A DNA stretch of 64,000 bases from an uncultured Gammaproteobacteria bacterium (GTDB taxonomy: Bacteria; Pseudomonadota; Gammaproteobacteria; UBA9214): positions 832,001-896,000 of the forward strand of contig CAVVHS010000006.1 in the NCBI GenBank assembly GCA_963748215.1, read 5' to 3'. Made by a program: the position numbers and the translations under genes. Below the pieces are notes generated by a model. That model was not told the origin of the DNA. It did not search any database and saw nothing but the letters and a program-made list of their open reading frames with translations. Shown here piece by piece: positions 15,969 through 44,592 of this stretch (positions are counted from its first letter, which is position 1; each line of letters begins with the position of its first letter).

Positions 15969-16212
15969 TGGCGCGCCCGAAGAGATTACTCGGCCAAATT
16001 CTACTCGGGGCATTACTGACCCTCGCGCCCTGCGGGCCGCCGCCGCTGCGCGGCGACGTTCTCGGCACTTGCTCCCTGCATTACTCTCGGCTCTGGCATC
16101 CTGCTTCGCTCTACCGAGTCCATCCATGGACTCGTACCTCCTGAATGGCCCAGGCCAGCTGCTCGACCCGGACTATGCCCGTAATATGGCTAACCTTTCC
16201 CTGCAGTCGTGC
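15969..16212 (-). repeat. tRNA-Arg att-like site 2 with expanded nested hairpin insertion; right side replaced by a MITE fragment
   Basis: TGGCGCGCCCGAAGAGATT-ACTCGG...; upstream TGGACA arm-like repeats at 15905-15935. Confidence 0.8.
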
Positions 16213-16344
16213 ACCGGCGGGACAGCGACCCATTTTCCGGATCCTCCCCGTCAAATAGCTACGGCTACTCTCCTTGAATTATACAAAAAATGACCTCACT
16301 CTCCCACCCGGCTCGCTACGATCGCCCAGATCCGACAGACTCCT
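16210..16344. mobile_element. Partial copy of the 165-bp MITE at 22541-22705
   Basis: High identity, including the right TIR ATCCGACAGACTCCT. Confidence 0.8.
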
Positions 16345-16373
16345 GGATTCGATTATTCCTGAATTTATAGCTA

Positions 16374-16416
16374 TGTACGTTATCGTACAGACTGCGTTTT
16401 CTCATACGACTACTGT
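16374..16416 (+). promoter_or_regulatory. Crp/Fnr-type box TGTACG-TTAT-CGTACA-GAC plus -10 (TACTGT)
   Basis: Perfect palindromic half-sites; one of six copies. Confidence 0.75.
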
Positions 16417-16596
16417 TTCACCAGCATCCGGACTGCCCGTGTAATTTGTCCTGACTATGTCACCTTTTCCTTTCCGCAGGCTGTTGCTGCGCAAGACGCG
16501 AGAGTAACGGAGTAGAGGGATGCGGCATGGATGCTCGATCTACTGTCCCGCCAGTCGGGACCCGAACAACACCTCTACGCTGGAAGGAGTATCAAG

Positions 16597-17158
16597 ATGT
16601 ACAACATACGCAATCATCCCCTCACACTCATGTTCGCGGCGGCAGCCATCGTCTCGATGAGCGTGATGAATCTGGCAAGTGCCGCAACCGCTGAGGATCT
16701 GGACAAGGATTCCCGACAGGCCTTGCAGACACTTTATAAAGCCGAACCTGTTGCCAAGACCCTTTCGCACACCGCCAAGGCTATCCTCGTTTTTCCGAAT
16801 ATCGTAAAGGCTGGCCTGGTATTCGGCGGCAGCTATGGCGAAGGTGAGCTGATCAAGGGCTCGAAGAGTGGTCGATTATTACAACTCCGTAACCGGATCC
16901 TGGGGTCTGCAAATCGGCGCCCAGTCCTACGGATATGCCGTGTTTCTGATGACAGACAAGGCCGTCAAGTACATCGAAGAGACGAAGGGCTGGGAAATTG
17001 GCGTGGGTCCGACCGTCGTGGTGGTTGACGAAGGGGTCGCGAAGAATCTTTCGACATCCACGCTAAAGGATGATGCCTATGCGTTTATCTTCAGTCAGCA
17101 GGGATTGATGGCTGGAGTCAGCATCGAGGGTACGAAAATTTCCCGAATCGAACGGTAA
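16597..17158 (+). pseudogene. YSC84/SYLF-related lipid-binding exported protein, frameshifted near 16867
   Basis: AILVFPNIVKAGLVFGGSYGEG in one frame, GSWGLQIGAQ...GLMAGVSIEGTKISR in another; may be a sequencing error. Confidence 0.75.
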
Positions 17159-17316
17159 ACCGGCACGGGGCGGACGCGATTTGCGTCCGTCCCGACTTGT
17201 CTGTCTCCCTCAAATACAGAGGGCGAAATTACAGCAGCGGTGATGAAGCATCAGGCCGCACCGAAACGATTCAGTCGCTGCCTCTGGAACACATATGAAC
17301 TCACAGGAGAATATCC

Positions 17317-17508
17317 GTGCCTTTGATTAACCTGGTCATCATCTTGCTCGTGGTTGGCGTACTGCTCTGGGTCGTCAATACCTACATACCCATGGACCGC
17401 AAGATCAGAAACATCCTGAACATAGTCGTGGTCATTGTGGTCGTGATATGGTTACTGCAGGTGTTCGGCGTGATGGGATCGCTGGATAGCATACGTATCG
17501 GCCGATGA
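17317..17508 (+). CDS. Small two-TM membrane protein (Thivi_2564-like)
   Basis: GVLLWVVNTYIPMD..I..ILN; RBS AGGAG. Confidence 0.75.
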   Translation: MPLINLVIILLVVGVLLWVVNTYIPMDRKIRNILNIVVVIVVVIWLLQVFGVMGSLDSIRIGR

Positions 17509-17684
17509 TGGCCTGAAAGGGTCATGAGACACAGTCAGTCTCCAATAAAAGTAGATCGATAGTGCGTTGGAAGTGGAGCCTGACACCTCGCATTCGCGAA
17601 GACTATTCCGATCCCCGTAACATCCATTACAATACCCGAAGCTGAAATAACCCGATTCGATGTGCGAATCGGGTTCTCATATGA

Positions 17685-18326
17685 GTGTTTGATCAGGACC
17701 TATCCGTCATGATCAAGAGTGAACGCTTCAACAGCATTTCACATCTGGTCGGTGCTGTGCTGGCGCTGGCAGGTGCCGTGGTGCTGGTTGTGGTGGCGTC
17801 GCGGGGTGACGATACACGCCGCATCGTGTCGTTCAGCATTTATGGCGCGACGCTGTTTCTGCTTTACCTCATTTCCACACTTTATCACGGCCTGCCGACG
17901 GGCCGTGCGAAGCACGTGTTCCGCGTTCTCGATCATCAGGCGATATATCTGCTGATAGCCGGAAGCTACACGCCGTTCACGCTGGTCGTGCTCGACGGTA
18001 TTGTGGGTTGGTGGCTGTTCGGTGCGATCTGGGGCATGGCGGTGCTGGGTCTGGTGCTCGATGCGCTGCCCCGGCGCGGCGCGCGGGTGCTGCCGTTTAT
18101 TATTTACTTCGTAATGGGCTGGTTGATAGTGCTGGCCATTGATCCACTGCTCGCGGCGCTGCCTCGCACGGGCTTCATCTGGCTGTTGACCGGCGGCATA
18201 CTCTATTCCTCCGGTATCGTGTTTTTTGCCCTCGATCGCCGTTACCCGTGGATGCACGGGGTATGGCATCTGTTCGTACTGGCCGGCAGCATCAGCCACT
18301 ATGTGGCGATTCTGGTCTATGTGTGA
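17685..18326 (+). CDS. Hemolysin III / PAQR family membrane protein
   Basis: ERFNSISH, STLYH, LDHQAIYLLIAGSYTP, HGVWHLFV. Confidence 0.92.
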   Translation: MFDQDLSVMIKSERFNSISHLVGAVLALAGAVVLVVVASRGDDTRRIVSFSIYGATLFLLYLISTLYHGLPTGRAKHVFRVLDHQAIYLLIAGSYTPFTLVVLDGIVGWWLFGAIWGMAVLGLVLDALPRRGARVLPFIIYFVMGWLIVLAIDPLLAALPRTGFIWLLTGGILYSSGIVFFALDRRYPWMHGVWHLFVLAGSISHYVAILVYV

Positions 18327-18475
18327 TAGCCAATAACGGTTCCGTAAGCAGTCGTATCGCAGGTGTCCTGAATGGCGATGGGCAAACTCCACGCACCTCG
18401 AGTCCGTAACCCGCTCGTTTGGATGGTGCAGCACCAGATCCTGTGGCCGAGTACCAGGGCATGGCAGGCGTGTTA

Positions 18476-18518
18476 TGTACGCTACCGTCCAGACAACCGC
18501 CAGGTCTCATTCCATACT
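18476..18518 (+). promoter_or_regulatory. Crp/Fnr-type box plus -10 (CATACT) upstream of the first Crp gene
   Basis: TGTACG-CTAC-CGTCCA-GAC, 18 nt, CATACT. Confidence 0.7.
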
Positions 18519-18595
18519 AGTATTATTCATCTTCGTGAAAAACACTTACCCTTGGATGCGTATTCGACACAGGGATTGCACAGCCAGCTCTCAAT

Positions 18596-19378
18596 GTGCC
18601 GTTTCCCGGGTTTTCCGACACCAGGAGAGATCATTTGCCGCTCACCAGACCTGCCCCGGTTGCCAATCGTCTGCTTGGTGCCCTGCCGCGCAAGGACCGT
18701 CAGCGATTTCTGGCAGGCTGCGAGCCGGTCGAACTGGCATTTGCCGATGTCCTGACCGAACCTGGCGAGCGCATTCGCCACGTTTACTTCCCCACGGAAA
18801 GCTTCATTTCGCTGGTAACGCCGATCGATAGCCGCGCTCGCCTGGAGGTGGGACTGGTCGGTGACGAAGGCATGCTCGGAATCTCCCTCATACTCGGAGT
18901 GGATGTAGCGCCGCTGCACGCCGTGGTACAGGGAAAAGGTACGACGCTGCGCATGAACGTCGCGCCGTTTCGCCGCGAACTCGCACTGAGCCCCGCACTG
19001 CAACGGGGACTGAAGCGTTACCTCTATGTAATGATGGGTCAAATCGCGCAAACAGCCGCCTGTACCCGCTTTCATGTGGTGGAGGCGCGTCTTGCCCGCT
19101 GGCTACTGATGACACAGGACCGGGCGCACTCAAACGCGTTCCATGTCACGCATGAATTTCTCGCTTACATGCTGGGCGTGCGTCGTGTCGGTGTCACCAG
19201 GGCCGCCACTGCGCTGCAAAATCGCAAACTGATCCGCTATAGCCGCGGGAATATCACGATTCTTGACCGCGGCGGCCTGGAGGCCGCTTCCTGCGTGTGT
19301 TACGCGGCCGATAAGGCAATCTACGCCAGGATATTGGGCCAGAACGCCTGTCGGACTCAGGAAATCGTAGCGCGCTGA
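18596..19378 (+). CDS. Crp/Fnr family transcriptional regulator
   Basis: [41 protein letters not shown]. Confidence 0.92.
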
Positions 19379-19434
19379 ATACGCCTGTCAGGCAACAATA
19401 TGAGGATCAGTGCGACAACACGCGGCCAACCGGA

Positions 19435-20154
19435 TTAATGAACGTTGATCACCGGGAGCAGGCGATCGAACTCCTTCTTGACCACCTGGTAGCATTCGCA
19501 GACGCGTGCCTCCAGGCCGGGCCGGTCCAGCACGGTGATCTTGCCGCGGCTGTAGTGAATCAACCCGGCGCGCTGCAGTTTCCCGGCCGCCTCGGTGACG
19601 CCTTCGCGGCGCACGCCGAGCATGTTGGCGATCAGCTCCTGCGTCATGATCAACTCGTTCGAGGGCAGGCGGTCCAGGCTCAGCAGCAGCCAGCGGCACA
19701 GTTGCTGGTCCACCGAATGATGCCGGTTGCACACCGCCGTCTGCGCCATCTGGGTCAGCAGCGCCTGGGTGTAGCGCAGCAACAGACGCTGCATCGGCCC
19801 GGCGCGAAAGAACGCGTCCTTCAGCAGCTGCCCCTTCAGCCGGTAGGCGTGACCGGCGCTTTGCACCACGGCCCGGCTGGTCGTGGTTTCGCCGCCCATG
19901 AACAGGGAGACGCCGACGATGCCCTCGTTGCCGACCACGGCGATTTCGGCCGATGCGCCATCCTCCATGACGTAGAGCAGGGACACGATGGAGGTGGTGG
20001 GGAAATAGACGTGGCGCATCGTCATGCCGGGCTCGTAAACCGCATCGCCGAGCGGCATCGGGACCAGTTCCAGATGGGGAAAGAGGCGCGCGCGTTCCTC
20101 CGCCGGCAGGGCGGCGAGCAGGTGGTTCTGACGGGGGTCATGAGGGACGGGCAT
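19435..20154 (-). CDS. Crp/Fnr family transcriptional regulator
   Basis: EIAVVGNEG, QTAVCNRHH, TQELIANMLGVRREGVTEAAG, CECY. Confidence 0.94.
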   Translation of the reverse strand: MPVPHDPRQNHLLAALPAEERARLFPHLELVPMPLGDAVYEPGMTMRHVYFPTTSIVSLLYVMEDGASAEIAVVGNEGIVGVSLFMGGETTTSRAVVQSAGHAYRLKGQLLKDAFFRAGPMQRLLLRYTQALLTQMAQTAVCNRHHSVDQQLCRWLLLSLDRLPSNELIMTQELIANMLGVRREGVTEAAGKLQRAGLIHYSRGKITVLDRPGLEARVCECYQVVKKEFDRLLPVINVH

Positions 20155-20252
20155 GTGCCGCCGCCCAAGTATCTGTCAAAACTGTAATAATCATCGATGT
20201 GGCTGTATCTGCTGCTGGAAACGCCGGTTAATTATCTCCCCTCCCCCGCCAA

Positions 20253-20344
20253 TGTACAACAGCGTACAGACGGAGCACGGGTACCCTTCGATTGCCGGCT
20301 ATGTACGCCAGCAGACAGACGGCGAATGAGGTCCTCCGTAAGCT
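20253..20344 (+). promoter_or_regulatory. Two tandem Crp/Fnr-type boxes (20253 and 20302); the second has a -10 (TAAGCT)
   Basis: TGTACA-ACAG-CGTACA-GAC and TGTACG-CCAG-CAGACA-GAC. Confidence 0.7.
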
Positions 20345-20467
20345 CGAATCATCGGAACCAGCATAAAAACCTGCAATGTCTGCAGCGCTATCCTGGCGAA
20401 GAGCAGTGTATGCCCGGCATGACTTGCCGATGCATCACTCCCGGACTCACCACATTAAGGAACGTTA

Positions 20468-20707
20468 ATGACCAACTTCAACACCATTGATACCATGCAG
20501 AAATACGCACTCATTGCAGTTGCCGCAGCCTTGCTGCTCGGCCTGAGTGGTTGTTCCGGGATGTCGACGCAGGACAAAAACACCGCTATCGGCGCGGGTG
20601 TCGGTGCCGTCGGCGGCGCAGTTCTTACCGGCGGCAGCACGATCGGAACCGTCGGCGGTGCAGCCGTTGGCGGCATCATCGGCCACGAGATCGACCCGGA
20701 CAATTGA
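20468..20707 (+). CDS. Glycine-zipper lipoprotein (OsmB-like)
   Basis: Lipobox LSGC; GAGVGAVGGAV...GAAVGGIIGHE. Confidence 0.85.
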   Translation: MTNFNTIDTMQKYALIAVAAALLLGLSGCSGMSTQDKNTAIGAGVGAVGGAVLTGGSTIGTVGGAAVGGIIGHEIDPDN

Positions 20708-20840
20708 TGATCGGTCCGCGACGTGCCTGGCCCACCCGGCCGGTGCGTCGCGGACTCTGATAACCCTGGATACCGGCAATCGGTGTGACCCACACGGTGA
20801 CTCCCCCTACCAGACACAACATCATCAGGAGATATACATC

Positions 20841-21035
20841 ATGAAATCAGTCAAGATCCTCAGCACAGCCTTGCTTACAAGTGCGTTGCTTATTGCACTA
20901 ACCGGCTGCGAGAAACAGGAAGGCCCGATGGAGAAAGCCGGCAAGAGTGTCGACAACGCGACCGAGTCACTTGGAGAACATATGGAAGATGCCGGTGAAG
21001 CCATCCAGGACGCGGCAAAGGACGCCAAGAAGTAG
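20841..21035 (+). CDS. Small lipoprotein (EGPMEKAGK stress-protein type)
   Basis: RBS AGGAG, lipobox LTGC. Confidence 0.75.
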   Translation: MKSVKILSTALLTSALLIALTGCEKQEGPMEKAGKSVDNATESLGEHMEDAGEAIQDAAKDAKK

Positions 21036-21260
21036 AGAGCGCTGTATATGGGCAACAACCAGAGTTAATCGTGTGTCGTTCTGCACTATCAAGGGCCCTG
21101 CCGACCGCTTGTGGGGCGCGCAGTCACAGCGCAAGTTCCTCACGCAGATGGGGCTCGACCAATGGACGCAGTCCGGGGAGCTGGTTCGCCCGGAAGTGAA
21201 GCGATTCACTCCGGATTAAGTGGCTCCGCGACAGGACATGACAGATCAGGAGTAACATCC

Positions 21261-21407
21261 ATGCTTGAAACTATTGCGATTATCTTGCTCATCCTATGGG
21301 TGCTTGGCCTGGTTTCATCGTACACTATGGGTGGGTTGATCCATCTTTTCCTGGTCATCGCGCTCGTTGTGATCGTGATACGCGTCATTCAAGGTCGACG
21401 CGTGTAA
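21261..21407 (+). CDS. lmo0937-family small membrane protein
   Basis: MLETIAIILLILWVLGLVSSYTMGGLIH. Confidence 0.85.
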   Translation: MLETIAIILLILWVLGLVSSYTMGGLIHLFLVIALVVIVIRVIQGRRV

Positions 21408-21514
21408 CGGCCCGGGAAGTGCTCTCTGTCGCAGGGGGGCTAGGTGAATCGATCCGGTGATTTCCGGTTTACCGGGCGCCTGCCTGTAACGAAAGCATCA
21501 GAGAGGACGTGATC

Positions 21515-21829
21515 ATGCTGGTAACCTTTTCCTGCCCGGCCTATGCGAGCATAACGATGTTCGGCGCGGATGCAGTCCGACTGCTCAAACTGATGGGGCA
21601 CAGCGGTACGGTGCCCGGCGCTCTGCTGGCAGTAGATGTCCAGGCGGCGCTGGAACACCTGGAAGCTGCGGTCGAGGCAGACCAGCAGTCGCCGGAACCG
21701 GAAGTGCCTGCGGAAGGAGAGGACGGCGAACCTGCCGTCAGTCTCACGCACCGCGCCTTGCCGGTAATCGAATTACTCAAGGCGGCGGCAAAGGCAAAAT
21801 GCGACGTGATGTGGGACAAGAGCAACTAA
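21515..21829 (+). CDS. DUF1840-family protein
   Basis: MLVTFS...ITMFG..A..LLKLMGHSGTVPGA...RALP..ELLKAA. Confidence 0.8.
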   Translation: MLVTFSCPAYASITMFGADAVRLLKLMGHSGTVPGALLAVDVQAALEHLEAAVEADQQSPEPEVPAEGEDGEPAVSLTHRALPVIELLKAAAKAKCDVMWDKSN

Positions 21830-22156
21830 TCCAGCAGTCGTATGTGACAGTTATTCCAATACCAGGCCGCCAACTATAGTCAGGTGGTTGTGCCGGAATG
21901 TCGGCACAAGACAGAAGTTTCACTATCGACGCTGGAGTCGGGTCCGTAGACGGTACAGTCGTCGGCGGCAGCATCGATAGTCGATCAATCCGGCGTCTGT
22001 ACTTACCGCATACCGACCCCGGTTTCTGCTCACCGCTGTGTAGGTGCACTCCCCCGCCCCGCTCCTCCAGGCACTGCAATGGTGCTGCGAACTCCCTGAT
22101 AGCCCCGCCCGGGGATGTACACACCATGATCAGCTATGCAGGCAATTGTGACCTTA

Positions 22157-22199
22157 GGTACGCCAGCGTACCGACTGCACCTGATCCTGCGAGTAATCT
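22157..22199 (+). promoter_or_regulatory. Crp/Fnr-type box plus -10 (TAATCT) upstream of csbD
   Basis: GGTACG-CCAG-CGTACC-GAC with compensatory palindrome changes. Confidence 0.7.
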
Positions 22200-22338
22200 T
22201 GTATTTGTATCCGGAGTTTCCGTGAAATGATCCCGTCTTCTACCCACGCGAAGTTACCAGGTGACGAAAGATGACTGCGACGAAGGATGCTCGATTGGCA
22301 ATACCGCCAGTCGGAACACTGACAAAAGGACTTTACAT

Positions 22339-22542
22339 ATGGACTGGAATATCGTTGAAGGCAACTGGAAGCAGTTCAAGGGCAAGGTGAAAGCACAGTG
22401 GGGCAAACTCACCGACGATCACCTCGACGTGATTGCCGGCAATCGCGATCAGCTGGCGGGCAAGATCCAGGAGACCTATGGCATTACGAAGGACGAAACC
22501 GAACAGCAAATCAAGGATTTCGAAGAGCTTGACAAGCACTAG
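22339..22542 (+). CDS. csbD: CsbD/YjbJ-family general stress protein
   Basis: MDWNIVEGNWKQFKGKVKAQWGKLTDD. Confidence 0.9.
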   Translation: MDWNIVEGNWKQFKGKVKAQWGKLTDDHLDVIAGNRDQLAGKIQETYGITKDETEQQIKDFEELDKH

Positions 22543-22705
22543 GAGCCTGTCGGACTTGGGACTGATCTACTGCGCCGGCGGGACAGCAGCCCATTTTTCC
22601 GATCCTCCTCGTCAAATAGCTACGGCTATTCTCCTCGAACGATCGGAAAAATGACCTCGCTCTCCCACCCGGCTCGCTACGATCGCCCAAATCCGACAGG
22701 CCCCT
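22541..22705. mobile_element. 165-bp MITE
   Basis: TIRs AGGAGCCTGTCGGACTTGG / CCAAATCCGACAGGCCCCT; second partial copy at 16210. Confidence 0.8.
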
Positions 22706-22810
22706 GGCAGCCGACGCATTTCTCCTGACCTGAACGACGCCGTACACGGCGATACGCCGCATGAAGCGAGGGTCGCACAGGGCAGGCACTTTACTGAAAG
22801 GATACTACTC

Positions 22811-23691: not shown

Positions 23692-24630
23692 ATGAAAACT
23701 TCAAAACTGGCTGCCGCGATCATCGCCAGCGCCCTGTCTGCGTCTATCGTATCAGCGCAGGAAATGACCGCGCCCGCCGGGTCGGCGAAGTGCATAGACG
23801 CGGACAAGCAACTGTCCCAGATGCAGGAGAAAATGCAAGAATTACAGCAGCAGATGGAAAAACTCCGGCAACAGTCCAGGTTGCAGGAGAACATGAACGA
23901 AATGCAGCAGCAGATGGGGAAACTCCAGGCGACGACTGACCCGAAGGAACGCCGGAAGCTGTTGCAGGAACACATGCAGACCATGCAGGCACATATGGAG
24001 ATGATGCGTAGCATGAGCGGATCCGAAGGCGGCCCGGGCATGATGGGTGGTCCGCAGCGCGGTCCCGGTAGTCCGGGCGGCATGATGCATGGGCCCCAAG
24101 GCGGTCCGGGTGGCATGATGCGTGGTCCGGGTAGTCCAGGCGGCATGATGTACGGTCCCGGTGGTCCAGGCGGCATGATGTACGGTCCCGGTGGTCCGGG
24201 CGGCATGATGTACGGTCCCGGTGGTCCGGGTGGTCCCGAAGATGGCCCAGGTGGAATGGGCGGTTACCAGGGTGGCCCCGGTAGCATGGGCGGTCCCGGT
24301 GGTCCGGGCGGCATGATGCGTGGGCCCCAAGGCGGCCCGGGTAGCATGATGGGTGGTCCGGGTGGAATGGGCGGTCCCGGTGGTCCGGGTGGCATGATGC
24401 GTGGGCCCCAAGGCGGTCCGGGTGTAATGATGCGTCGGCCTCAAAGCGGTCCGGGTAGCATGATGGGTGGTCCGGGTGGAATGGGGGGTCCGGGCGGTCC
24501 AGGCGGTATGATGTACGGTCCCGGCGGTCCGGGTGGCCCCGGTAGCATGGGCGGTCCCGATGGTCCGGACGGCATGATGTATGGTCCCGATGGTCCCGAA
24601 GGTGGTCCGAATGAACCGAGGTCTGAGTAA
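23692..24630 (+). CDS. Secreted Met-rich coiled-coil protein with long GPGG/GMM low-complexity tail
   Basis: Signal peptide (VSA-Q), TTDPKERRKLLQEHMQTM, repeated GPGGPGGMM(Y/R). Confidence 0.8.
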   Translation: MKTSKLAAAIIASALSASIVSAQEMTAPAGSAKCIDADKQLSQMQEKMQELQQQMEKLRQQSRLQENMNEMQQQMGKLQATTDPKERRKLLQEHMQTMQAHMEMMRSMSGSEGGPGMMGGPQRGPGSPGGMMHGPQGGPGGMMRGPGSPGGMMYGPGGPGGMMYGPGGPGGMMYGPGGPGGPEDGPGGMGGYQGGPGSMGGPGGPGGMMRGPQGGPGSMMGGPGGMGGPGGPGGMMRGPQGGPGVMMRRPQSGPGSMMGGPGGMGGPGGPGGMMYGPGGPGGPGSMGGPDGPDGMMYGPDGPEGGPNEPRSE

Positions 24631-26652: not shown

Positions 26653-26836
26653 ATGGCTTGCAACGATACCGGCGTACTGGCGCCACGGCCGGCTGGTCAT
26701 ATGAACGCAGGCGAGGAAACGACTGAACAGGAAATACATTGAGGTGGTCGCTGGTGCAGGTGCTGCCAACACGGTTTCGGTAATCATAGATGAAGCCCGA
26801 AGGGATTCCAGGGGAAACGCCGCGGGCGGTTCTGGA

Positions 26837-27100
26837 GTGCCCGGGGAGATTACTCGGCCAAATTCTGCTCGGGGCATTACTGACCCTCGCGCCCTACGGG
26901 CCGCCGCCGCTGCGCGGCGACGTTCTCGGCAATTGCTCCCTGCATCGCCCAAGGGCGCCTACTTTTGGTGCCCCACCTCCTGCATGGCCCAGGCCAGCTT
27001 ATCGACCCGGGCTATACCCGTAATAATGGCTCACCTTCTCCCTGCAGTCGTGCGCCGCCTTCGGCGGCTTGTCGAACTCCCGACCGCCTGGTTCGCAGCC
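26837..27100 (-). repeat. tRNA-Arg att-like site 3 with nested hairpin insertion
   Basis: GCCCGGGGAGATT-ACTC...TTGT-CGAACTCCCGACCGCCTGGTTCGCAGCC. Confidence 0.82.
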
Positions 27101-27426: not shown

Positions 27427-29460
27427 ATGCACAGGACGATACAACCGCATATGAGCACATTAAAGAAATACCTGGAATCCATTCGGCAATACTCGCTCCC
27501 GAAAACGCGGGCTTTGCAACATGAACTGGAAGCGACTCGCGAGGCGCATGCCGCCATCACTGCTGAGCATGAAAAAGCGCGAGAAAACCTGCAGCTTGCC
27601 ATTGTAACTGATGCACAACTGCTTGCCGACTTGCGGCAGCAGGTAAAACAGATCGAATCAGAACGCAGCAATGCAGTTGAGCGGGTCGAGAATCTGCAAC
27701 GCTCACTCGTCGATGCAGAACAAAACCTGAAGTCCACCGAGGAACAAAAGGCGGCTCTGGAGGCGAAGCTCGAACAGGAACGCGACAACGCACTTAAGCA
27801 GGTAGAGTCTCTGCAACACTCACTCGCCGATGCAGAACAAAACCGGAAGTCCACCGAGGAACACAAGGCGGCACTGGAGGCGAAGCTCGAAGAGGAACGT
27901 GACAACGCACGTAAGCAGGTAGAGTCTCTACAACACTCACTCGCCGATGCAGAACAAAACCGGAAGTCCACCGAGGAACACATGGCGGCACTGAAGGCGA
28001 AGCTCGAACAGGAACGCGACAACGCACGTAAGCAGGTAGAGTCTCTGCAGCACTCACTCGCCGATGCAGAACAAAACCGGAAGTCCACCGAGGAACACAA
28101 GGCGGCACTGGAGGCTAAACTCGAAGCGGAACGTAGCCGGCATGAAGAAAGCATCCGCGCAACGGAATCCCGTCAGCTGCAACTACAGGCCGAACAGCAA
28201 TCCCGGTTAAAGCAGCAAACAGAACTGGCCAACAGCTTGCACGATGTGAACACACGCCTGTTAGAGTCGTTACAGGAAAGGAACAAGAAACAACGCTACT
28301 CACTGTTGCTACTTATCATCATAGCAGCTGCATTGTTTGCATCAGGCACCCTGATCGGGATGCTATTCCTGCAGCCCACGCAGGACAGCAACCAGGAGCT
28401 TGCCCTGGTAGAGCGGAATATCGATGATATGCGCAGCTTCACGAAACAGCATATCGATAACCAGGATGCGCTGCTGAAGGAGCTTGCGCTGAATCTCAAC
28501 AAGCAAGCTTCCGCTGAACAGGTATTGCTCGGGGAAAAACTGCAGCAGCTTGAGGAGATAACGCAAGCGACAGACACACCTCAGCCGGAGGCCGTAATAA
28601 CCTTCACACCGGATATCCGCGAGCTGCAGGCCAACCTGATGGCACTGGGCTTTGATTTGGGCATGTCGCAGCCGAACGGTGAGCCGGGCATCAAGACGCG
28701 GCAGGCGTTGCAGGAGTTCAGGCAGTTTTACCTGCCGCAGAGTGATGCACAGGATGACCTCATCAGTGAAGCGCTGGCGGCCCTGATCCTGAACTCGGCC
28801 GACCGTACCAGGGCCGATGCGGCGCGTTTCAGGATTGGCAGTGATGTGCTTGCCGCGATTCGGCTCGGCAGTATTCGCACTGGCGTGGACTTTTCATTCC
28901 TGATGGAGCTGGCCAGGGTCGAGAGTTACTTCAATCCGGCAGCGCGCGCACCGAAGTCTTCGGCAACCGGTTTGTTTCAGTTCAAGTCCCGTGACTGGCT
29001 GCAGGCGATGCGGACGTTTGGTGCCAGTTATGGCCTGCAGGACTACGCCACACAGGTCGCACTGATCGACGATGAGGACAACGTGCAGCAGCCGATTATG
29101 TACGACCCGCTGCAACAGGAAGCATTGGCGCTGCGTCTCAATCCGCGCTTGTCCACCCTGTTTGCCGCGGAGAACATCAAGCACAATTTGCAGGCGCTGT
29201 CAGAGATGATCGGGCGTGAACCCGGACGGACCGATCTCTACCTGTCCCATTTTCTCGGCACGGCCGATGCGGCAATGTTTCTCAAGGCGCTTGCTGAGGA
29301 ACCGACCGCAATTGCCGCTGAATTATTCCCGGAAGCAGCTGCAAAAAACCCGGGAGTCTTTCAGAACCGGCAGAACCAGCCACGCACCGTGGCCGGTGTA
29401 TACCAGTGGTTTGACCGCAAGTTCAATACCGCACGCTACGACGATCGCAATCCGGGCTGA
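27427..29460 (+). CDS. Coiled-coil repeat, TM, peptidoglycan-binding and SLT-like lytic transglycosylase protein
   Basis: 120-bp repeats at about 27690-28130; ELQANLMALG...G.PG.KT.QAL..F; ARVESYFNP...SSATGLFQF; LYLSHFLG; true start may be MSTLKK at 27451. Confidence 0.82.
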   Translation: MHRTIQPHMSTLKKYLESIRQYSLPKTRALQHELEATREAHAAITAEHEKARENLQLAIVTDAQLLADLRQQVKQIESERSNAVERVENLQRSLVDAEQNLKSTEEQKAALEAKLEQERDNALKQVESLQHSLADAEQNRKSTEEHKAALEAKLEEERDNARKQVESLQHSLADAEQNRKSTEEHMAALKAKLEQERDNARKQVESLQHSLADAEQNRKSTEEHKAALEAKLEAERSRHEESIRATESRQLQLQAEQQSRLKQQTELANSLHDVNTRLLESLQERNKKQRYSLLLLIIIAAALFASGTLIGMLFLQPTQDSNQELALVERNIDDMRSFTKQHIDNQDALLKELALNLNKQASAEQVLLGEKLQQLEEITQATDTPQPEAVITFTPDIRELQANLMALGFDLGMSQPNGEPGIKTRQALQEFRQFYLPQSDAQDDLISEALAALILNSADRTRADAARFRIGSDVLAAIRLGSIRTGVDFSFLMELARVESYFNPAARAPKSSATGLFQFKSRDWLQAMRTFGASYGLQDYATQVALIDDEDNVQQPIMYDPLQQEALALRLNPRLSTLFAAENIKHNLQALSEMIGREPGRTDLYLSHFLGTADAAMFLKALAEEPTAIAAELFPEAAAKNPGVFQNRQNQPRTVAGVYQWFDRKFNTARYDDRNPG

Positions 29461-35500: not shown

Positions 35501-35598
35501 GAACACGTCTCCCGTGTGCTCTACGGAGCACATATATCAGGCAAAGAACAAGACTGCCGACCGACACGTCAGGCGCTCGTCAGGCTATCTACCAGGAA

Positions 35599-36251: not shown

Positions 36252-36544
36252 TTGCACATCCGGTGAGATAACTCACCCCCTACGCGGCTCGCGCGGCGAC
36301 GTTCTCGGCAATGGCTCCCTGCATTGCTCTCGGCTCTGGCATGGCCCAGGCCAGTCTCTCGATCGCTGCGCGATCTCACCTGCTCCTGCTTCGCTCTACC
36401 GAGTCCATCCATGGACTCGTACCTCCTGCATGGCCCAGGCCAGCCTCTCGACCCGGGCTATGCCTGTAATAATGGCTCATCTTCTCCCTGCAGTCGTGCG
36501 CCGCCTTCGGCGGCTTGTCGAACTCCCGACTGCCTGGTTCGTAG
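36252..36544 (-). repeat. tRNA-Arg att-like site 4 (degenerate acceptor end) with the most deeply nested insertion
   Basis: ...TTGT-CGAACTCCCGACTGCCTGGTTCGTAG. Confidence 0.8.
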
Positions 36545-37945: not shown

Positions 37946-37996
37946 GTCGTTTCCAGACATACCAGATTTAATCTGGCCTGATGTTCCTATACCAAG

Positions 37997-39421
37997 TCAG
38001 AAGCCGCCGCGGGTACGAAAGCCACCACCGCCGCGTCCCGTGCCAGCACCAAAGGTACCGCGCCGACGCGAGGACGGGTTACGCCATACCTTGCGCGAGC
38101 GGCCAAAACCGCCGCTGCCGAAATCCGGATTGGAGCGGGTCTGGCGATAGCGCTGGTTGCGCAGGATGGTACTCCACAGATCATCGGAACTGGCAACACC
38201 GCGCAGGAACTCGTTCAAGATTACGGCCAGCAATCCGGTATTGTCGAATTGGGAATTCATATCGTCGAAGCGTTCGCGCTTGAAGTTGCGCCTGACCCCT
38301 TGTAGTTCCTGCAGACGAGCCAAATGCCGCGTGTGCATCTGCTTGTGATGGTCCAGGGCATCCTGGTGCTGCCTCTTCTCGTTGTCTATATTGACGAGCT
38401 TTTGGATGATAAGGTCATCTTTCGTAGTCATCGTCATCTCGGCATGCTGGCGCAAGGATGAAAAACCTTCACGCTCGAACTCCGCTACCAGAGTGGTGAT
38501 GGCTTTGTTGAAGTACGGATCCTCTGCGGCAGCAAATCGTGCCTGTTCCTGCAATAGCTGGTTGAAGGTCTCTTCTTCCTGCTGGATGCGTTGATCGATC
38601 AGCCGGAGCGCCTGTTCGACCTGCTCCACTGCCGCGCGCAGCGCAGGGATGCCGTCTGCATCCGCAACCGCCGCTTCCATCGCTTCCAGGGCGGCAAAGG
38701 CGGCATCGGCGTCGCTGCGTACCCGCTGTGCATGTTCGCGCAGTCGGACCGGAATCTCGAGCAACATGGCGTAGTTGGGGCGGGCCGCGTGATAATCACA
38801 CAATCGCGCCACCTTCCTGTCGAGAAAGCGGGTCAGGGGCCCGGCCGAATAGCGGGATGTTCCGAAGTGTCTTTTCCACAGATACATGAACAGCGAATCC
38901 GCCTCATAGGGCCCGCCTTTCTCGACCCGGTCTGCCTCTGCCTGTGCCGTCTTTGCTTCCGCCTGTCCGGCAATATCGTCTGCCGCATGCGCGGCAGCGA
39001 GCAGCTCCTTATGGGCCGGGTCCTCCTCCAGGCGCTGCTGTGTCGTGGCTTCCACCGCGTCGAGTCGTTCCGCGGCCTGGTCGGCCTGCTGACGCGAGGT
39101 CTCACGTTCGGTATCCAGATCATCCTGTGCCTGTTGTGATGCCTCGATGCGTGACTGGAGTGTCTGCAACGCCTGCCCGCGTTCGGCCAGCAACGCCTGC
39201 ACGCGCCGATCGGCTGCATCGAGGCCTGTGATGATCTCCCCCCTGATCAGTTGATCAAGCCGCATTTCGGCCAGTTGCCGGTAGCCGTCCGCTTCTTCCT
39301 GCCTCAGGTGCACCAGCTTCCTGCTGGTAATTTGAACCTGGGTATCGAGCTCACGGACCTGCTGGCGCACCTGGCGCAGGCCCTGGTCGATTGAGGTGAG
39401 TGTTTGCGGGCCGCTCCACAT
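37997..39421 (-). CDS. Hypothetical long coiled-coil protein with GGGGFRTRGGF C-terminus
   Basis: 474-aa ORF, operonic with the next two genes; YEADSLFMYLW motif. Confidence 0.8.
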   Translation of the reverse strand: MWSGPQTLTSIDQGLRQVRQQVRELDTQVQITSRKLVHLRQEEADGYRQLAEMRLDQLIRGEIITGLDAADRRVQALLAERGQALQTLQSRIEASQQAQDDLDTERETSRQQADQAAERLDAVEATTQQRLEEDPAHKELLAAAHAADDIAGQAEAKTAQAEADRVEKGGPYEADSLFMYLWKRHFGTSRYSAGPLTRFLDRKVARLCDYHAARPNYAMLLEIPVRLREHAQRVRSDADAAFAALEAMEAAVADADGIPALRAAVEQVEQALRLIDQRIQQEEETFNQLLQEQARFAAAEDPYFNKAITTLVAEFEREGFSSLRQHAEMTMTTKDDLIIQKLVNIDNEKRQHQDALDHHKQMHTRHLARLQELQGVRRNFKRERFDDMNSQFDNTGLLAVILNEFLRGVASSDDLWSTILRNQRYRQTRSNPDFGSGGFGRSRKVWRNPSSRRRGTFGAGTGRGGGGFRTRGGF

Positions 39422-39429
39422 GGTCCGGT

Positions 39430-40344
39430 CTACCAGGCGGTGATCGAGGCGCCGGTCGTCGGCATGGCATATTCGGGTGTGAGCTGGCCACGCCGCTTCA
39501 CGCCAAAGTCGCGCTTCTGGATTATTCCGTCGTCCTTTTTATCGGCGGCGATTTGTTGATACAGCTGCTCGCTTACCCGCAGCGCCCATTTGCTTACCTT
39601 ATAGGTCTTTCCATCCTCTTCATTGCGGACAGGTAACGTCAGCGTGCTGCCATCCGCAATCACCGCCTCGACGATAATGTAGTAGTTACGGGCATTGGGG
39701 TTGAGTTCTGGCATACGCCATACACCACTGGGTTCATCCGGCCGGGATACGATGCGCACGATGTATTCCTGTTCAAGCTGTGCACGCAGGTCCTTCAGTG
39801 AGGCAATTGCTTTCTCGGCTGCTTCGGTATCGTTTTCATGCAAGGCCACCTTGCCCTGTTTAAGGTACTGTTCCGCGCGTTCCCTTGCTTCGGGGAGCGT
39901 GGTTTGTTCGACAATGGCCTGTCGCTGTGTGGCCAGTTCGTCAGGGAGTGTTGCCAGACGGCGTTGTTGCGGGCCGCTGATCAGCGTTGCGTATACAATC
40001 ATTACCGCAGTGATGAGCGCCAGCATCACCAGCAGCGCCTTGCCCCAGGTGCCGCGGCTGATGTAGATGCGTGCGAGGATTACGCGTAAGCCCGGTTCGG
40101 GCGGCGTGTAGACAAAGCGCTCCTCATCCAGGGCCGCAACACCTTCGGCCAGCACATGATCGGGAACATCGATACCCTGGGCGGCATAGATCTCGCGCAG
40201 CCGCTTGATCAGTGTTTGCTCGCGCGCTTCCGTATTCAGTTCACGCTCGACCAGCAGCTGGCGATGCCGTAGTGTATCGACCACATCCATGGCCTGCATG
40301 ACTTCATCGAGTGGATGCCTGGTTGCCGTATTTGTCCCGGCCAT
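39430..40344 (-). CDS. DUF6384-like membrane-anchored protein
   Basis: LDEVMQAMDVVDTLRH, RLREIYAAQGIDVPD..L.EGV.AL.E.RF.Y.PP. Confidence 0.75.
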   Translation of the reverse strand: MAGTNTATRHPLDEVMQAMDVVDTLRHRQLLVERELNTEAREQTLIKRLREIYAAQGIDVPDHVLAEGVAALDEERFVYTPPEPGLRVILARIYISRGTWGKALLVMLALITAVMIVYATLISGPQQRRLATLPDELATQRQAIVEQTTLPEARERAEQYLKQGKVALHENDTEAAEKAIASLKDLRAQLEQEYIVRIVSRPDEPSGVWRMPELNPNARNYYIIVEAVIADGSTLTLPVRNEEDGKTYKVSKWALRVSEQLYQQIAADKKDDGIIQKRDFGVKRRGQLTPEYAMPTTGASITAW

Positions 40345-40374
40345 GGTTCAGGGCTGCCTGTTGTCCGGGTTCTG

Positions 40375-41550
40375 TTATGACTGCCCTGGCAGCGTCAGCG
40401 GGAATGCCTTGCCTTCTTCGACCAGCCGTGCAAGGCGCTTCTTGCCTTCTTCCACCGCATCGCGGATTTCTTCAGCGTTCTGCGTGCTCAGCTTGCGCAT
40501 TTCCTCGATTATGATGCGCGAGTGTTCCTGGTAACTGACCACCGAATCAACGAGGCGTTTGACAGCATCGGCGCGAATAGTCGGGCCGTAGCCGGCCTTG
40601 ATGGCCTCTTCATGCACCTTGCCGCCGATATCGGCCAGGTCTTCAAGGCTCTTGTTGACACCCTCTTTCATCGCGTTCAGGGTCTCGGTGCTCTCGTGCA
40701 ATCCGTGCAGGCCGGTGAACGACGCACTCAACGCGGTTAATACGGTTTCATTGGTGCCGAAGAAGCTTATCGACTGCTGGTACACGCGCTCCTTGGCATT
40801 GGTGGTCTGGATGAGCCGTGCCATGACAACCTCCGAGGTGTGGTAGCTCACCGTCAGGTTATCGGAGAGATCCTTGCTGATCTGGTAACGCTGATCGGCA
40901 GTCTGAACATCACGCATACGTTCATCGCGCGTGAGTTCCAGGCGTGCGCGTTCGGCAGCATCTTCACCTGTATACTCGCCCAATGTGTTCATCGCAGCCT
41001 GCAGGTCGGCCTTGGCTATATCCAGCTTGCCCTGGGCGGTTTTCAGGACTTCCAGCGCCAGTACTTCGGACTCTTTCAGGGCGCCGCGGAAATCCTGGTA
41101 GGCGGTGAGAATCAGGTGTTCGCGCTGGATCTGATCTTTGGAATCATCAGCCACGTCCAGATACACCTTTTTGATATTATCGAAGCGGTCGGAGATATCG
41201 CCGCGGCTCACCTTCATCCAGACATTCTGTACACGTTCCCAGGTATTGACCTTGCCATCTTCTAATTGCTCGACCATCCCCTTGGCATCTTCGCGAATGC
41301 TGTTAAATGATTTGATTATTTCTTCATAGCGTTCGCCGATTTGCATGGCGCTGACCTGTTCGCGGACCACTTCATTGAATAGCGAGGCCTGGTTCAGTGT
41401 CATGGCGATTGCCACGACCTTCTCTTCATCCAGATCGGTAATCTGATTCAGTAATGCGATAACGGGGGCTTCCTCGTTACCCTCTGGCATCAGGTTGAGA
41501 TCACGCAGCGAGTTGAGCGCCTTGTCGAGATATTTTAAAGGTGTACTCAT
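40375..41550 (-). CDS. All-helical protein, TelA/toxic-anion-resistance-like (often annotated as cell surface protein)
   Basis: 391-aa helical ORF; family assignment from recall only. Confidence 0.6.
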   Translation of the reverse strand: MSTPLKYLDKALNSLRDLNLMPEGNEEAPVIALLNQITDLDEEKVVAIAMTLNQASLFNEVVREQVSAMQIGERYEEIIKSFNSIREDAKGMVEQLEDGKVNTWERVQNVWMKVSRGDISDRFDNIKKVYLDVADDSKDQIQREHLILTAYQDFRGALKESEVLALEVLKTAQGKLDIAKADLQAAMNTLGEYTGEDAAERARLELTRDERMRDVQTADQRYQISKDLSDNLTVSYHTSEVVMARLIQTTNAKERVYQQSISFFGTNETVLTALSASFTGLHGLHESTETLNAMKEGVNKSLEDLADIGGKVHEEAIKAGYGPTIRADAVKRLVDSVVSYQEHSRIIIEEMRKLSTQNAEEIRDAVEEGKKRLARLVEEGKAFPLTLPGQS

Positions 41551-42053
41551 GGGGTATTCCTCACCTGTAGTGGATTGCAGACTTGAGGGTGACCGTGCGG
41601 GTAACCGGGGTAAGCTGATGCATTAGTATAATACCTCCTGGCAGGCGTGTACTTATTCGAATATTCAGCCTGTGGGTGGCGAATTCCTGGTTGTCACCTG
41701 AAAACGTTCACCTAGACCGTGTGGGTGACTCAATCATAGTTATCATCTTACAAACGCTGACTTAGACTGGCGTTCAAACGCCAGATGTCAATTGATTCAG
41801 CACCTCTATAAAAAGGGAAACCTGATTCTATTGGACTTCGAACATCTATTGGACAGATAGCAGTTTCAAGGCTCAGCTACGTATTAACAAACCAAACACT
41901 TAATGACTGCTGGCCAGTCGATCACGTGGTTTTTAACCAGGTAGTCGGGTTAGCACTTAATCCTTTGTTTTCGTGAGAACTGGAAAAAGGAAGGATAAAG
42001 ACAGCAAGTAGAAAAGACCTGCAAAATCTTCGCTAACTTGCTGCTTTATAATA

Positions 42054-42303
42054 TGGCGCGCCCGGAGAGATTACTCGGCCAAATTCTACTCGGGGCACTA
42101 CTGCCCCTCGCGCCCGTGCGGGGCCGCCGGCAAAGCCGGCGTTCTCGGCAATTGCTCCCTGCATTGCTCTACCTCGTGCATGGCCCAGGCCAGCCTCTCG
42201 ACCGGTTTCCGGTCTCACCTACTCCCTGCAGTCGTGCGCCGCTGCGCGGCTCGTCGAACTCGACCAATTAGAAACGTCGGGAGTTCGAATGCCTGGTTCG
42301 TAG
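42054..42303 (-). repeat. tRNA-Arg att-like site 5 with nested insertion and partial repeat tail
   Basis: TGGCGCGCCCGGAGAGATT-ACTC...TCGT-CGAACTC...GCCTGGTTCGTAG. Confidence 0.82.
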
Positions 42304-42588
42304 TGTTATCCCTCAACCTCTCCAACCGTCTAATTTACTTAACAAATCAAGACTTTTCGCCTATATGGCGTTTAATGCGTTGATTTGCGGTTGGTTGGAC
42401 ACTGTTATTGGACAGCAAACCCTCCCCAAGACCATGTGATTATGAATTCGCCATGCACACCCAACAAACGAGAAATTCCGGACATCTGCGCCATTTTTGC
42501 CACTACCGCAGTAGAATCGGCCTAAGCTGGAAAGACTCCTAGAATACGGACCACGCTGTTACCGAACAGCATCGAATCTACGCAGGAT

Positions 42589-43296
42589 ATGGGAACAGAA
42601 AAGCTACCGACAAAATCCAGTCGTTCAGAGGTCGAGGCGTTTCTGCGCGAGGCGGCATCCACACCCGTTATAAAGTCGTCGACCCAGTTGGGACGGCTGA
42701 TGTTCGCGCTGGATGCCACCGCGAGTCGCGGGCCCACCTGGGACCATGCCTGCCATTTACAGGCCCAGATGTTTGCAGAGACAGCGAACCTTGGCGGCCT
42801 GGAGATCCAACTGTGCTATTACCGCGGATTCAACGAATTCAGGACTACCGGCTGGCTAACTAACACCGTCGATCTCCAGCACCGCATGGCGGCCGTACGA
42901 TGCCTCGGCGGACAGACGCAGATACACAAGGTGCTTCAACATGCGATCAAGGAGACCAGGCAAAAAAAGGTCGACGCGCTGGTATTTGTGGGTGACTGCA
43001 TGGAAGAAGACATTGACGAACTTTGCCAGATTGCGGGTGAACTGGGCATTCATAATGTCCCAGTATTCTTGTTTCACGAGGGCAGCGACCCCGTCGCCGA
43101 ACATGCTTTCAGACAGATCGCGAGACTGACAAAGGGAGTGTATTGCCCGTTTGACGCAGGTAGCGCCGAGCAGCTGCGTGACCTGCTGAGCGCGGTGGCC
43201 GTCTATGCGGCGGGCGGGCGCCGGGCGCTGGAACATTTCAGCAAGACGCGGGGCGAGAAGGTAAAGCTGCTTACCCGGCAGATTAGTCAGGGTTAG
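42589..43296 (+). CDS. VWA-domain protein
   Basis: MIDAS-like FALDATASR, GGQTQI, FVGDCMEE. Confidence 0.88.
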   Translation: MGTEKLPTKSSRSEVEAFLREAASTPVIKSSTQLGRLMFALDATASRGPTWDHACHLQAQMFAETANLGGLEIQLCYYRGFNEFRTTGWLTNTVDLQHRMAAVRCLGGQTQIHKVLQHAIKETRQKKVDALVFVGDCMEEDIDELCQIAGELGIHNVPVFLFHEGSDPVAEHAFRQIARLTKGVYCPFDAGSAEQLRDLLSAVAVYAAGGRRALEHFSKTRGEKVKLLTRQISQG

Positions 43297-43301
43297 TCAT
43301 A

Positions 43302-44033
43302 GTGCGCGCACTACTTCTCCTGGCGGCAATTGCCGGGCTCTATCTCGCGTTTCGCTGGTTCCTGACACAACCACGGAGAACCCAGCTTCAGGCGACTGCA
43401 GTGGCCGTCGGCCTCGCGCTGATAGGTTTGGCGGCAACCGGGCGCCTGAACTGGGTGTTCGCAATCTTCGGTGCCCTGCTGCCATTCGTGCGCCGTTTGC
43501 TGCCACTGGCGTCCTACCTGCCGACCTTTCAGCGGGTCTACAGACACTTCAAGAGCGCACGATCCACAGCAGGACAGTCTGCTGGCCAGCAGTCAAAAGT
43601 TGAAACCCGCTTTGTCAGCATGACCCTAGATCACGACACGGGTGAGATGAACGGTAGCGTTCTTGAAGGCCGGTTCGCCGGCAAGGATTTAAAGGCGCTT
43701 TCACTCGACCAACTGGTTGAACTGCTGGCCGAGTGCGTACACGAAGACGAAGAATCGGCAGCACTCTTGCGCGCTTATTTGGACCGGGTGCATGGTGACG
43801 AATGGCAAAAGCGGGAGCAGTCCGAAGCAGGTAATAAGGCCACGGGATTTTCAGCCGAAATGACACGTCACGAGGCCTATGAGATTCTGGGTCTCGATGT
43901 AGGGGCCAGCGAGGAACAGATCATAGAGGCGCACCGGAGACTCATGCAGAAAATCCATCCAGACCGCGGCGGTTCCACCTTCCTGGCATCCAAGATTAAT
44001 CAAGCCAAGCGCCTGCTGCTTGGCAATGGGTAA
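43302..44033 (+). CDS. Membrane protein with C-terminal DnaJ domain
   Basis: AYEILGL...AHRRLMQKIHPDRGGS. Confidence 0.9.
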   Translation: MRALLLLAAIAGLYLAFRWFLTQPRRTQLQATAVAVGLALIGLAATGRLNWVFAIFGALLPFVRRLLPLASYLPTFQRVYRHFKSARSTAGQSAGQQSKVETRFVSMTLDHDTGEMNGSVLEGRFAGKDLKALSLDQLVELLAECVHEDEESAALLRAYLDRVHGDEWQKREQSEAGNKATGFSAEMTRHEAYEILGLDVGASEEQIIEAHRRLMQKIHPDRGGSTFLASKINQAKRLLLGNG

Positions 44034-44149
44034 TCGCGGAACCGGAAGTGAATACGTCCCCGCAGGGTCAAAATACACATCCCACTCGCTCGGCTAGTGT
44101 AGGTCGTCAAACAGTTTGTAACTTATAAACACAGGGAATATAGCTGTTG

Positions 44150-44592
44150 CGTGACGTCCAAAATCGCTCCCGGCGATTTTGTCGAACTGTGGAGCCCGAC
44201 TCAGCCCTCGCACAAGCCAAACACAAAACCGGCCTGGAGGCCGGTTTTGTGTTTGGCTTGCCCGGAGAGATTACTCGGCCAAATTCTACTCGGGGCATTA
44301 CTGCCCCTCGCGCCCCTGCGGGGCCGCCGGCAAAGCCGGCGTTCTCGGCAATTGCTCCCTGCATTGCTCTACCTCCTGCATGGCCCAGGCCAGCCTCTCG
44401 ACCGGTTTCCGGTCTCACCTCCTCCCTGCAGTCGTGCGCCGCTGCGCGGCTCGTCGAACTCAACTGAATAGATACGTCGGGAGTTCGAATACCTGCCAGT
44501 ACTTCAAACACACAGAAGCCCGCGCAAGGCGGGCTTCTGTGTGTTTGGCGCGCCCGGAGAGATTCGAACTCCCGACCGCCTGGTTCGCAGCC
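44150..44592 (-). repeat. Tandem tRNA-linked repeat units ending in an uninterrupted tRNA-Arg 3' half (44546-44592); site 6
   Basis: Interrupted copy at 44254, intact copy at 44546, terminator-like hairpins at 44216-44257 and 44506-44545. Confidence 0.85.

Follow-up and report, generated by a model that had tools for sequence, protein, structure and literature searches.

Precise insertion and nesting of a widespread 47-48-bp two-hairpin unit among gammaproteobacterial micro-repeats

A 64,000-nucleotide stretch from an uncultured gammaproteobacterium (GenBank assembly GCA_963748215.1, contig CAVVHS010000006.1, positions 832,001 to 896,000; hereafter the window) contains very small repeat units, of 22-71 bp, that lie within one another, here termed layer A, B (with its variant B'), C, D and F, and alignment of filled with empty copies confirms that the nesting is real. 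B and B', described in an initial annotation of this DNA as sibling units, are a single 47-48-bp two-hairpin family that is spread across Gammaproteobacteria. Insertion of B is exact and occurs at an N|T step; the target loses no bases, and apart from one shared base nothing is duplicated. We have little doubt that the units are precisely and independently mobile. It is also reasonable to favor, with rather less assurance, the view that the composites are nests of non-autonomous micro-transposons moved in trans by a HUH enzyme encoded elsewhere, of the RAYT or IS200 type.

Results

Pairwise filled/empty alignments within the window give clean insertions whose boundaries slide by a single shared T only (D alone slides by none), and counts of the motifs in the window were 3 versus 0, 6 versus a mean of 0.04 (maximum 2), and 5 versus 0 in 100 shuffles. 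In the composite at 44273-44454 (plus strand, as are all composites given here; Rfam AaHKsRNA22 match at 44275-44364), layer A holds B, which follows GTTCT at 44346 with the clean junction that the initial annotation had described, and B holds C (44382-44423), the two together spanning 90 bp (44346-44435). The same order is found at 42073-42254, with B at 42146-42235 and C at 42182-42223, and at 26852-27072, where B (26927-27051) contains both the 23-bp micro-unit F (26946-26968) and a 54-bp form of C (26986-27039). The composite at 36306-36497 reaches four levels, layer A included, its outer B holding B' (36331-36420, with C at 36343-36384) and a second C (36432-36485). Finally, the left part of layer A, carrying a 15-bp extra unit (15988-16062), is followed by an outer B (16063-16210) that holds C in a 52-bp form at GAAT^CC (16147-16198) and an uninterrupted 48-bp B' (16088-16135). 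The latter lies at CTC|TACC of B, a site that is empty at 44370, and alignment here agrees with the junction first proposed (CTCT^ACC). The layer A copy that corresponds exactly to the empty state of the B site is 71 bp long and lies at 4629-4699 (plus strand; GTTCT^TCGCC). The copy at 52179 had been taken as the basic core, and layer A is indeed present there, but its fourth hairpin differs and it is not the exact empty allele. The five A+B+C composites have common junctions and so probably descend from one ancestral composite; the window alone therefore holds few independent events, whose independence is unprovable there. C lies inside all 5 of the 5 outer B copies, the joined right end of an uninterrupted outer B had 0 matches in the window, and the 48-bp length of the outer B is borne out by empty copies elsewhere.

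The right flank of the 15988 composite is chimeric. Beyond B it continues not as layer A but as the second half of another long palindromic repeat (16211-16345, plus strand; uninterrupted copy at about 22540-22705), with a junction at that family's CTACT^GC, and at locus L020 (locus numbers refer to the loci listed below) B lies within the same palindrome family. The chimera at 16210 probably arose by recombination between two B copies. The 15-bp extra unit at the start of layer A (15988, 26852, 42073, 44273 and 48898 copies) contains a 7-bp direct repeat, and may be a local duplication or the remnant of a B-like insertion.

The distribution of B was assessed through one scan of genome contigs with a B/B' pattern, which gave at least 124 stretches, resolved to 123 loci and 127 distinct copies; duplicates among the listed copies were removed by their 30-base flanks, and the sample may be biased. 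By record title the loci, at least 123 in number, are gammaproteobacterial in 118 cases, from unclassified Proteobacteria in 4 and from Haliangium in 1. B is present in 8 plasmid records, and a Pseudoalteromonas replicon carries the predicted empty B 48-mer after GTTCT in an unrelated context. A BLAST search of plasmids with the filled composite retrieved B alone in Pseudoalteromonas and otherwise chance matches, no orthologous empty site was found for the Pseudoalteromonas copy, and B had no match in 50,697 phage records. B is thus found outside the composite with fixed junctions in many hosts, so that the idea of independent mobile micro-elements accreting on one another withstood the test that had been set for it, namely whether the units ever occur apart from this composite.

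For 38 of the 93 complete listed copies the joined flanks were found elsewhere at offset 0 (0.85 Mb compared), 26 of these in non-B hosts and 12 in tandem or self-nested copies, and empty alleles at offsets of 1-3 bases either way numbered 0 among the same 93. Across the 127 listed copies the left flank is YYCT-like (position -2 is C in 97, T in 19, G in 11 and A in 0; position -1 is T in 119), B terminates in CGT, and the bases right after this terminus carry at most 0.15 bit. Target choice is only weakly constrained, with four positions of a degenerate YYC|T carrying about 3.4 bits in all, and the steps used by the 99 listed copies with a leading T were C|T (66), T|T (15), G|T (9), C|A (6) and others (3).

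The preferred targets of B are structured, and both other repeats and B itself are among them: its empty alleles gave -8.1 kcal/mol versus -6.2 kcal/mol for control YC|T sites (n=104 versus 314, p about 1e-6). Its hosts comprise REP-like hairpins, other palindromes (some of which we take to be BoxC-like), inserts of tRNA-linked repeats (TLR; L012), C (L075), B' (L104) and B itself. Self-insertion occurs at several positions (L009, four deep; L051; L113), 10 of the 127 listed copies are nested in B-family units, and B' enters B at the C|TAC step in the window as well as in L051, L071 and L115. Head-to-tail tandems of B are seen in L046, L050, L099 and L122, and about 900 bp of L072 (2990-3940) consists of tandem and nested B' variants, with nine copies of one 47-bp unit; the flanks in L072 are duplicated, so an assembly artefact is possible for this array.

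Protein-coding genes are also entered. Eight of 80 tested copies lie well inside long open reading frames (ORFs; called mechanically, and in small numbers), and 7 of these 8 are 48 bp long versus 37 of the 72 outside. B adds 16 residues in frame to pglX (L126:2506-2553), a cobN-like gene, dabA, a molybdopterin oxidoreductase and a cupin (L054, L058, L065 and L069). The pglX genes of L126 and L128 form an orthologous pair, filled and exactly empty respectively; 2 of 3 pglX homologues align ambiguously, and the clean pair comes from L128 alone. B' was found in 2 of 5426 Escherichia coli genomes, both times in pglX, and the pglX allele is also in 2 plasmid records. Structure searches on the in-frame inserts gave a split alignment for cobN and no match for dabA. 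Orientation relative to transcription was 20 versus 11 among co-directional gene pairs, without clear bias.

In 26 hand-picked 48-bp copies, B folds as two hairpins with 73% of cells pairing. These copies contain 26 two-sided changes in the stems versus 8.9 when shuffled, and 0 of 500 shuffles reached as high a value; the number of pairs with two-sided changes was not above the shuffles (210/500). On the minus strand the first loop reads C-ANGGAU-G with a free N in 113 of the 127 listed copies and the second is AGGA, AGGGA or AGGAX, while GTAG (TTAG in a minority) stands between the hairpins, one base before hairpin 2, these loops and this motif having been fixed in part by the search pattern itself. 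Tandem G.A steps alternate with Watson-Crick pairs. Neither wobble-pair counts nor energies (DNA, -7.5 versus -7.9 kcal/mol; RNA, -12.5 versus -12.9 kcal/mol) tell which strand folds. Published binding rules for Csr/Rsm proteins call for an A(N)GGAX loop on a stem or an AGGGA pentaloop (PMC4005645), and the two minus-strand loops of B match such high-affinity sites, which we regard as putative.

C, F and layer A insert as cleanly as B, at narrower sites. The initial annotation placed a 42-bp C at 36343-36384 and 44382-44423, with the site empty at 16099, and these assignments stand; that length holds for 3 of the 6 window copies only (the two just named and 42182-42223), the others being 52, 54 and 54 bp. 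C is located at AT^CC of a GGAT loop in 8 of 8 copies, six in the window and one each in L075 and L104, and the latter two, both in GGAT hairpins, are its only occurrences among the 123 listed loci. In L075 the host of C is a plain GGAT hairpin rather than B, and B lies inside C, the reverse of the usual order. The GGAT loop used by C is filled by other B-like units in L015, L028, L063 and L086, of which at least those in L015 and L028 are reversed. Plasmid searches with C alone gave chance-level matches. A relative of F occupies the same position of B in L074 and is found twice in an IS91-like gene in L076. D is, as annotated, a 63-bp insert in the acceptor-stem strand at 51918-51980 (plus strand), with no shared T at its junction; its homologue at 26790-26839 (plus strand) is partial, and no copy of D was found in the listed loci outside the window.

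Layer A (~71 bp) is a T-loop insert in tRNA-Arg-like 3' halves. One such half (4610-4725, minus strand), which runs from the anticodon arm to CCA, is interrupted by it when aligned to the empty fragment at 52344-52388 (minus strand); T-loops are empty at 44564 (in the half at 44546-44590, minus strand) and at 52362, and the supposed core is therefore itself an insertion into tRNA 3' halves. The insertion step, T|TCGAA, comprises tRNA T-loops and one mimic. Of two IS91-like genes in the window (Y2_Tnp by Pfam, 5167-5918 and 12884-13447), the first carries a 71-bp A-family unit at a T-loop-like T|TCGA site (5421-5491, minus strand) and the second is empty near 13139, so that the TLR insert is itself mobile. 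Part of the 5421-5491 unit recurs at 44156-44185. Further plus-strand copies of layer A lack B (47453-47526, with an Rfam match, and 51993-52068) or are shortened (48898-48967). The 184-bp unit at 52160-52343 (plus strand) is a TLR unit, with a tRNA 3' end, layer A (52179-52252), an inverted T-arm copy and a terminator-like hairpin. Behind layer A, at 44455-44545, 47527-47612, 52069-52159 and 52253-52343, there is a plus-strand tRNA-like stretch, with a D-arm-like part and a T-arm but no anticodon arm, and then a terminator-like hairpin; this arrangement is the TLR architecture.

The TLR of E. coli (rttR/RtT, RF00391) has its insert at the same T-loop step (GATT^CGAAC), with similar ends, an inverted T-arm copy and a comparable unit length (178 bp at tyrT versus 184 bp in the window). 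Unlike the E. coli repeats, those of the window lie behind tRNA 3' halves and not an intact tRNA-Arg gene, and layer A has additionally entered a protein gene whose second copy is empty. The RtT model scored 26.1 bits on the window, below its 45-bit cut-off, the AaHKsRNA22 model (RF02902) was above cut-off at three window layer-A copies, and a search of E. coli with the unit at 52156 gave a single chance match. Layer A is thus an already known T-loop insert (E. coli TLR; Rfam AaHKsRNA22), and its insertion in the IS91-like gene is new. The tRNA-linked repeats have been described as without known function (PMC8144298).

The window ends in rplT-pheS-pheT-IHF-MerR-tRNA-Pro, an order typical of Gammaproteobacteria and their relatives, and is otherwise mostly island-like cargo: glycosyltransferases, an RND efflux operon, toxin-antitoxin pairs, and IS3/IS481 and IS91-like remnants. 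Minus-strand tRNA-Arg-like 3' halves separate the cargo blocks (six tails, 4610-52388); their identity is taken from sequence, as ARAGORN calls tRNA-Pro alone, and Pro(GGG), at 58561-58637, is the closest tRNA that is intact. Neither an intact tRNA-Arg nor an integrase was found in the window. Together the tails and cargo look like a decayed tandem island array. A TacA-like antitoxin and GNAT pair is duplicated (44787-45571 and 47935-48719), a HigB-family gene lies at 46753-47064, and coding tandem repeats occur in a glycosyltransferase (63 bp, 9336-9947), a Gly/Pro-rich protein (about 30 bp, 24039-24593) and an SLT-domain protein (117 bp, 27650-28117). Three copies of one end sequence, at 4850, 12439 and 51467, are presumably ends of IS91/ISCR-like elements; two of them adjoin Y2_Tnp fragments.

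Discussion

How might such small units move? In the explanation that we favor, a HUH tyrosine transposase would cut single-stranded, hairpin-exposing DNA before T, and B would leave its site as a circle of single-stranded DNA, closed at a G|T joint, to be strand-transferred into C|T sites. Head-to-tail tandems would arise when this G|T joint is used again as a target. Nesting would then result because each unit brings new hairpins and cut sites into DNA where insertion is cost-free, with no dedicated relay. TnpA_REP enzymes make single-strand cuts at C|T, and in the case of Marinomonas at C|A as well, and attach the incoming DNA to the T (PMC8266576). For TnpA_REP of E. coli, one site falls inside CTAC, which is GTAG read on the complementary strand, and models for this enzyme include both tandem amplification and circles of single-stranded DNA (PMC3333891). 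The tandems of B do show the G|T joint expected of a circle, and B' does enter B at C|TAC. The link to RAYT transposases suggested at the outset is made plausible by this junction chemistry, but a Y1 gene flanked by B was not found in our scans. We consider the odds that the mover is a Y1-HUH enzyme to be about even.

Several observations weigh against this explanation. Of the 99 target steps, 72 are of the C|T or C|A type, but 24 are T|T or G|T and so misfit a strict C|T rule, and a change of CT to TT abolished TnpA_REP cutting in vitro (PMC8266576); the target step of C is A|T. The GTAG and hairpin of B are on the strand opposite the C|T junctions (the CTAC strand), and TnpA_REP requires a REP on the cut strand (PMC3333891), which a host REP could supply in some targets only. 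Loops are not favored over stems (24/104 insertions versus 72/314 controls). Ownership of the shared base is mixed: among 12 informative copies, 4 with a credible empty allele, 3 favor a leading T (two in one host family) and 1 a trailing T, and in 4 copies each end carries a C, the pattern expected of a 1-bp duplication. The pglX insertion lies 9 bases from a 30-bp deletion. No mobilizing gene was present among 200 window frames scanned; Pfam gave no Y1 transposase or tyrosine integrase in these 79 + 121 frames, which exclude frames inside identified genes. In the loci, 98 of about 710 ORFs were scanned, picked by HxH motif or nearness to B, and gave one Y1 gene, flanked by ordinary REPs and not B, and no enriched enzyme among neighboring genes. 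The genes beside the L072 array are not transposase-like by eye, and the half-matches in the listed loci included no autonomous parent bearing the ends of B.

Among known systems, REP, BIME and REPIN repeats with their RAYT enzymes resemble B in their small extragenic hairpins, in a GTAG placed immediately 5' of a hairpin and in tandem amplification, and most junction steps of B, though not all, are the C|T or C|A of these systems. Insertion into existing repeats is shared with REPINs (PMC3116915) and with some GTAG/CGTC families (PMC3733652), and in-frame insertion into genes with REPs (PMC6006769). B is unlike them in being a single asymmetric unit of two unlike hairpins with one GTAG and no inverted doublet, in its conservation across orders rather than within a species, and in having its GTAG opposite the C|T junction strand, with no flanked RAYT gene in the scanned frames. 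TwoAYGGAY repeats (RF01731) and their proposed pseudomonadotal extension (bioRxiv 10.64898/2026.09.22.753630), also treated in PMC2864571 and PMC4333381, likewise have ANGGAY-loop hairpins with tandem G.A steps in Gammaproteobacteria; they vary in copy number, Csr/Rsm binding has been proposed for them, and they are suspected to be of mobile origin (10.64898/2026.09.22.753630). In contrast to these, B is 48 bp long with one ANGGAU and one AGGA(N) loop and no common basal stem, and its exact ends and targets are defined, while the accessible part of the preprint leaves the mechanism unresolved. Across 20 loci, with E values up to 1 admitted, the RF01731 model did not match B (a single sub-threshold match lay elsewhere in L112), and it had no match in the window at 15800-37000 or 41900-52600, and no Rfam model fell on B in the 20 loci or on B and C in the window. 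Non-autonomous derivatives of IS200/IS605 offer a further parallel, with subterminal hairpins at both ends, no target duplication, a preference mostly in the 5' flank and a predicted circular single-stranded intermediate; unlike their fixed tetra- or pentanucleotide, the target of B is a degenerate YYC|T. Nor is B a MITE (miniature transposable element with inverted repeats), its ends not being inverted repeats and empty alleles at shifted offsets being absent. In sum, B falls outside REPINs, MITEs and TwoAYGGAY repeats on the features tested, and behaves like a non-autonomous single-strand element. A literature search, beyond whose reach most subscription papers lay, found no description of B or C, and the accessible parts of PMC3184786 and 10.1101/2024.07.17.603846 contain nothing specific to these units. 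IS110-type recombination, which involves a two-base core shared at both junctions and a long specific target, was also rejected: two bases are shared in 9 of the 93 complete listed copies, mostly tandems, and the targets are diverse.

It is conceivable, though we think it unlikely, that an IS91/ISCR-type rolling-circle (Y2 HUH) transposase acts in trans instead, with B as a minimal ori-ter cassette. Head-to-tail arrays of up to nine copies without duplication would fit, and IS91-like genes recur as hosts: one of the two in the window is entered by A, one in L076 contains F and B, and B in L090 presumably also lies in such a gene. However, B has no visible sequence likeness to the ends of the window IS91-like elements, these genes may equally be single-stranded or dispensable targets, and the strong right-flank T is unexpected on this reading.

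A similarly low probability attaches to the proposal that B is mainly a functional RNA module, a two-site Csr/Rsm binder spread via an RNA intermediate or kept by regulatory selection. Its conserved minus-strand loops fit the Csr/Rsm rules (PMC4005645), the loops of TwoAYGGAY repeats have been proposed as Csr/Rsm sites (10.64898/2026.09.22.753630, PMC4333381), and the tandem G.A steps among Watson-Crick pairs and the gammaproteobacterial range are in keeping with such a role. On the other hand, the loop conservation was partly imposed by the search pattern, the orientation of B has no clear bias, the target duplication or tail of target-primed reverse transcription is absent, the GGA loop is repeatedly destroyed by C and other inserted units (L015, L028, L063, L086), and the loops could be DNA recognition signals. 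A Csr/Rsm role accounts for persistence better than for movement, and can be compatible with HUH-mediated transposition as a secondary effect.

The initial annotation supposed that each unit carries the target of the next. This fits C, seen solely at AT^CC in GGAT loops, and to an extent F, at the same B position in the window and L074, and B', at CTC|TAC of B in several genomes. B is a generalist that enters genes, C and its own copies as well as palindromes of REP-like, tRNA-linked and other kinds, and a strict target hierarchy therefore holds only in part. A strict relay, with each family specialized for a target on the preceding one, is accordingly very unlikely: it is refuted for B by the many unrelated hosts and genes and by the small share of copies nested in its own family, the order is reversed in L075, where C sits in a plain GGAT hairpin, and coding DNA, too, harbors F and A. 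An origin by slippage, gene conversion, local duplication or an artefact of assembly, for which one could cite the common junctions of the five window composites, contigs of metagenome-assembled genomes with duplicated flanks (L022, L072) and the 7-bp repeat in the 15-bp unit of layer A, is improbable in the extreme, since the inserts have no local template and the same ends, with a one-base slide, recur in unrelated contexts and in finished replicons; for B, slippage is ruled out by recurrent copies and joined-flank empty alleles elsewhere, though such an origin may apply to D and to the 15-bp unit.

With exact ends, target rules and filled/empty pairs in hand for so small and widespread a unit, an assay with a 48-nt oligonucleotide can identify the enzyme. 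The findings bear on how AYGGAY-loop repeats expand and on what TLR/RtT repeats are, and some families annotated as small RNAs (sRNAs), AaHKsRNA22 for example, may in fact consist of mobile repeats. B makes in-frame 16-residue inserts, as in pglX, and can join unrelated repeats, as in the chimera at 16210; if its loops bind CsrA, the element also spreads regulatory sites. More tentatively, and as something we would not yet bet on, Gammaproteobacteria may carry an undescribed 'micro-mobilome' of several hyperparasitic families of 20-70 bp, which would exploit the HUH nucleases of the host and seek out the hairpins of one another, with a mobile two-site CsrA/RsmA operator as the hub. If this were true, the hub element could subject genes to control by Csr or lengthen proteins by 16 residues, and the same process would explain the origin and expansion of TLR/RtT and TwoAYGGAY-type repeats.

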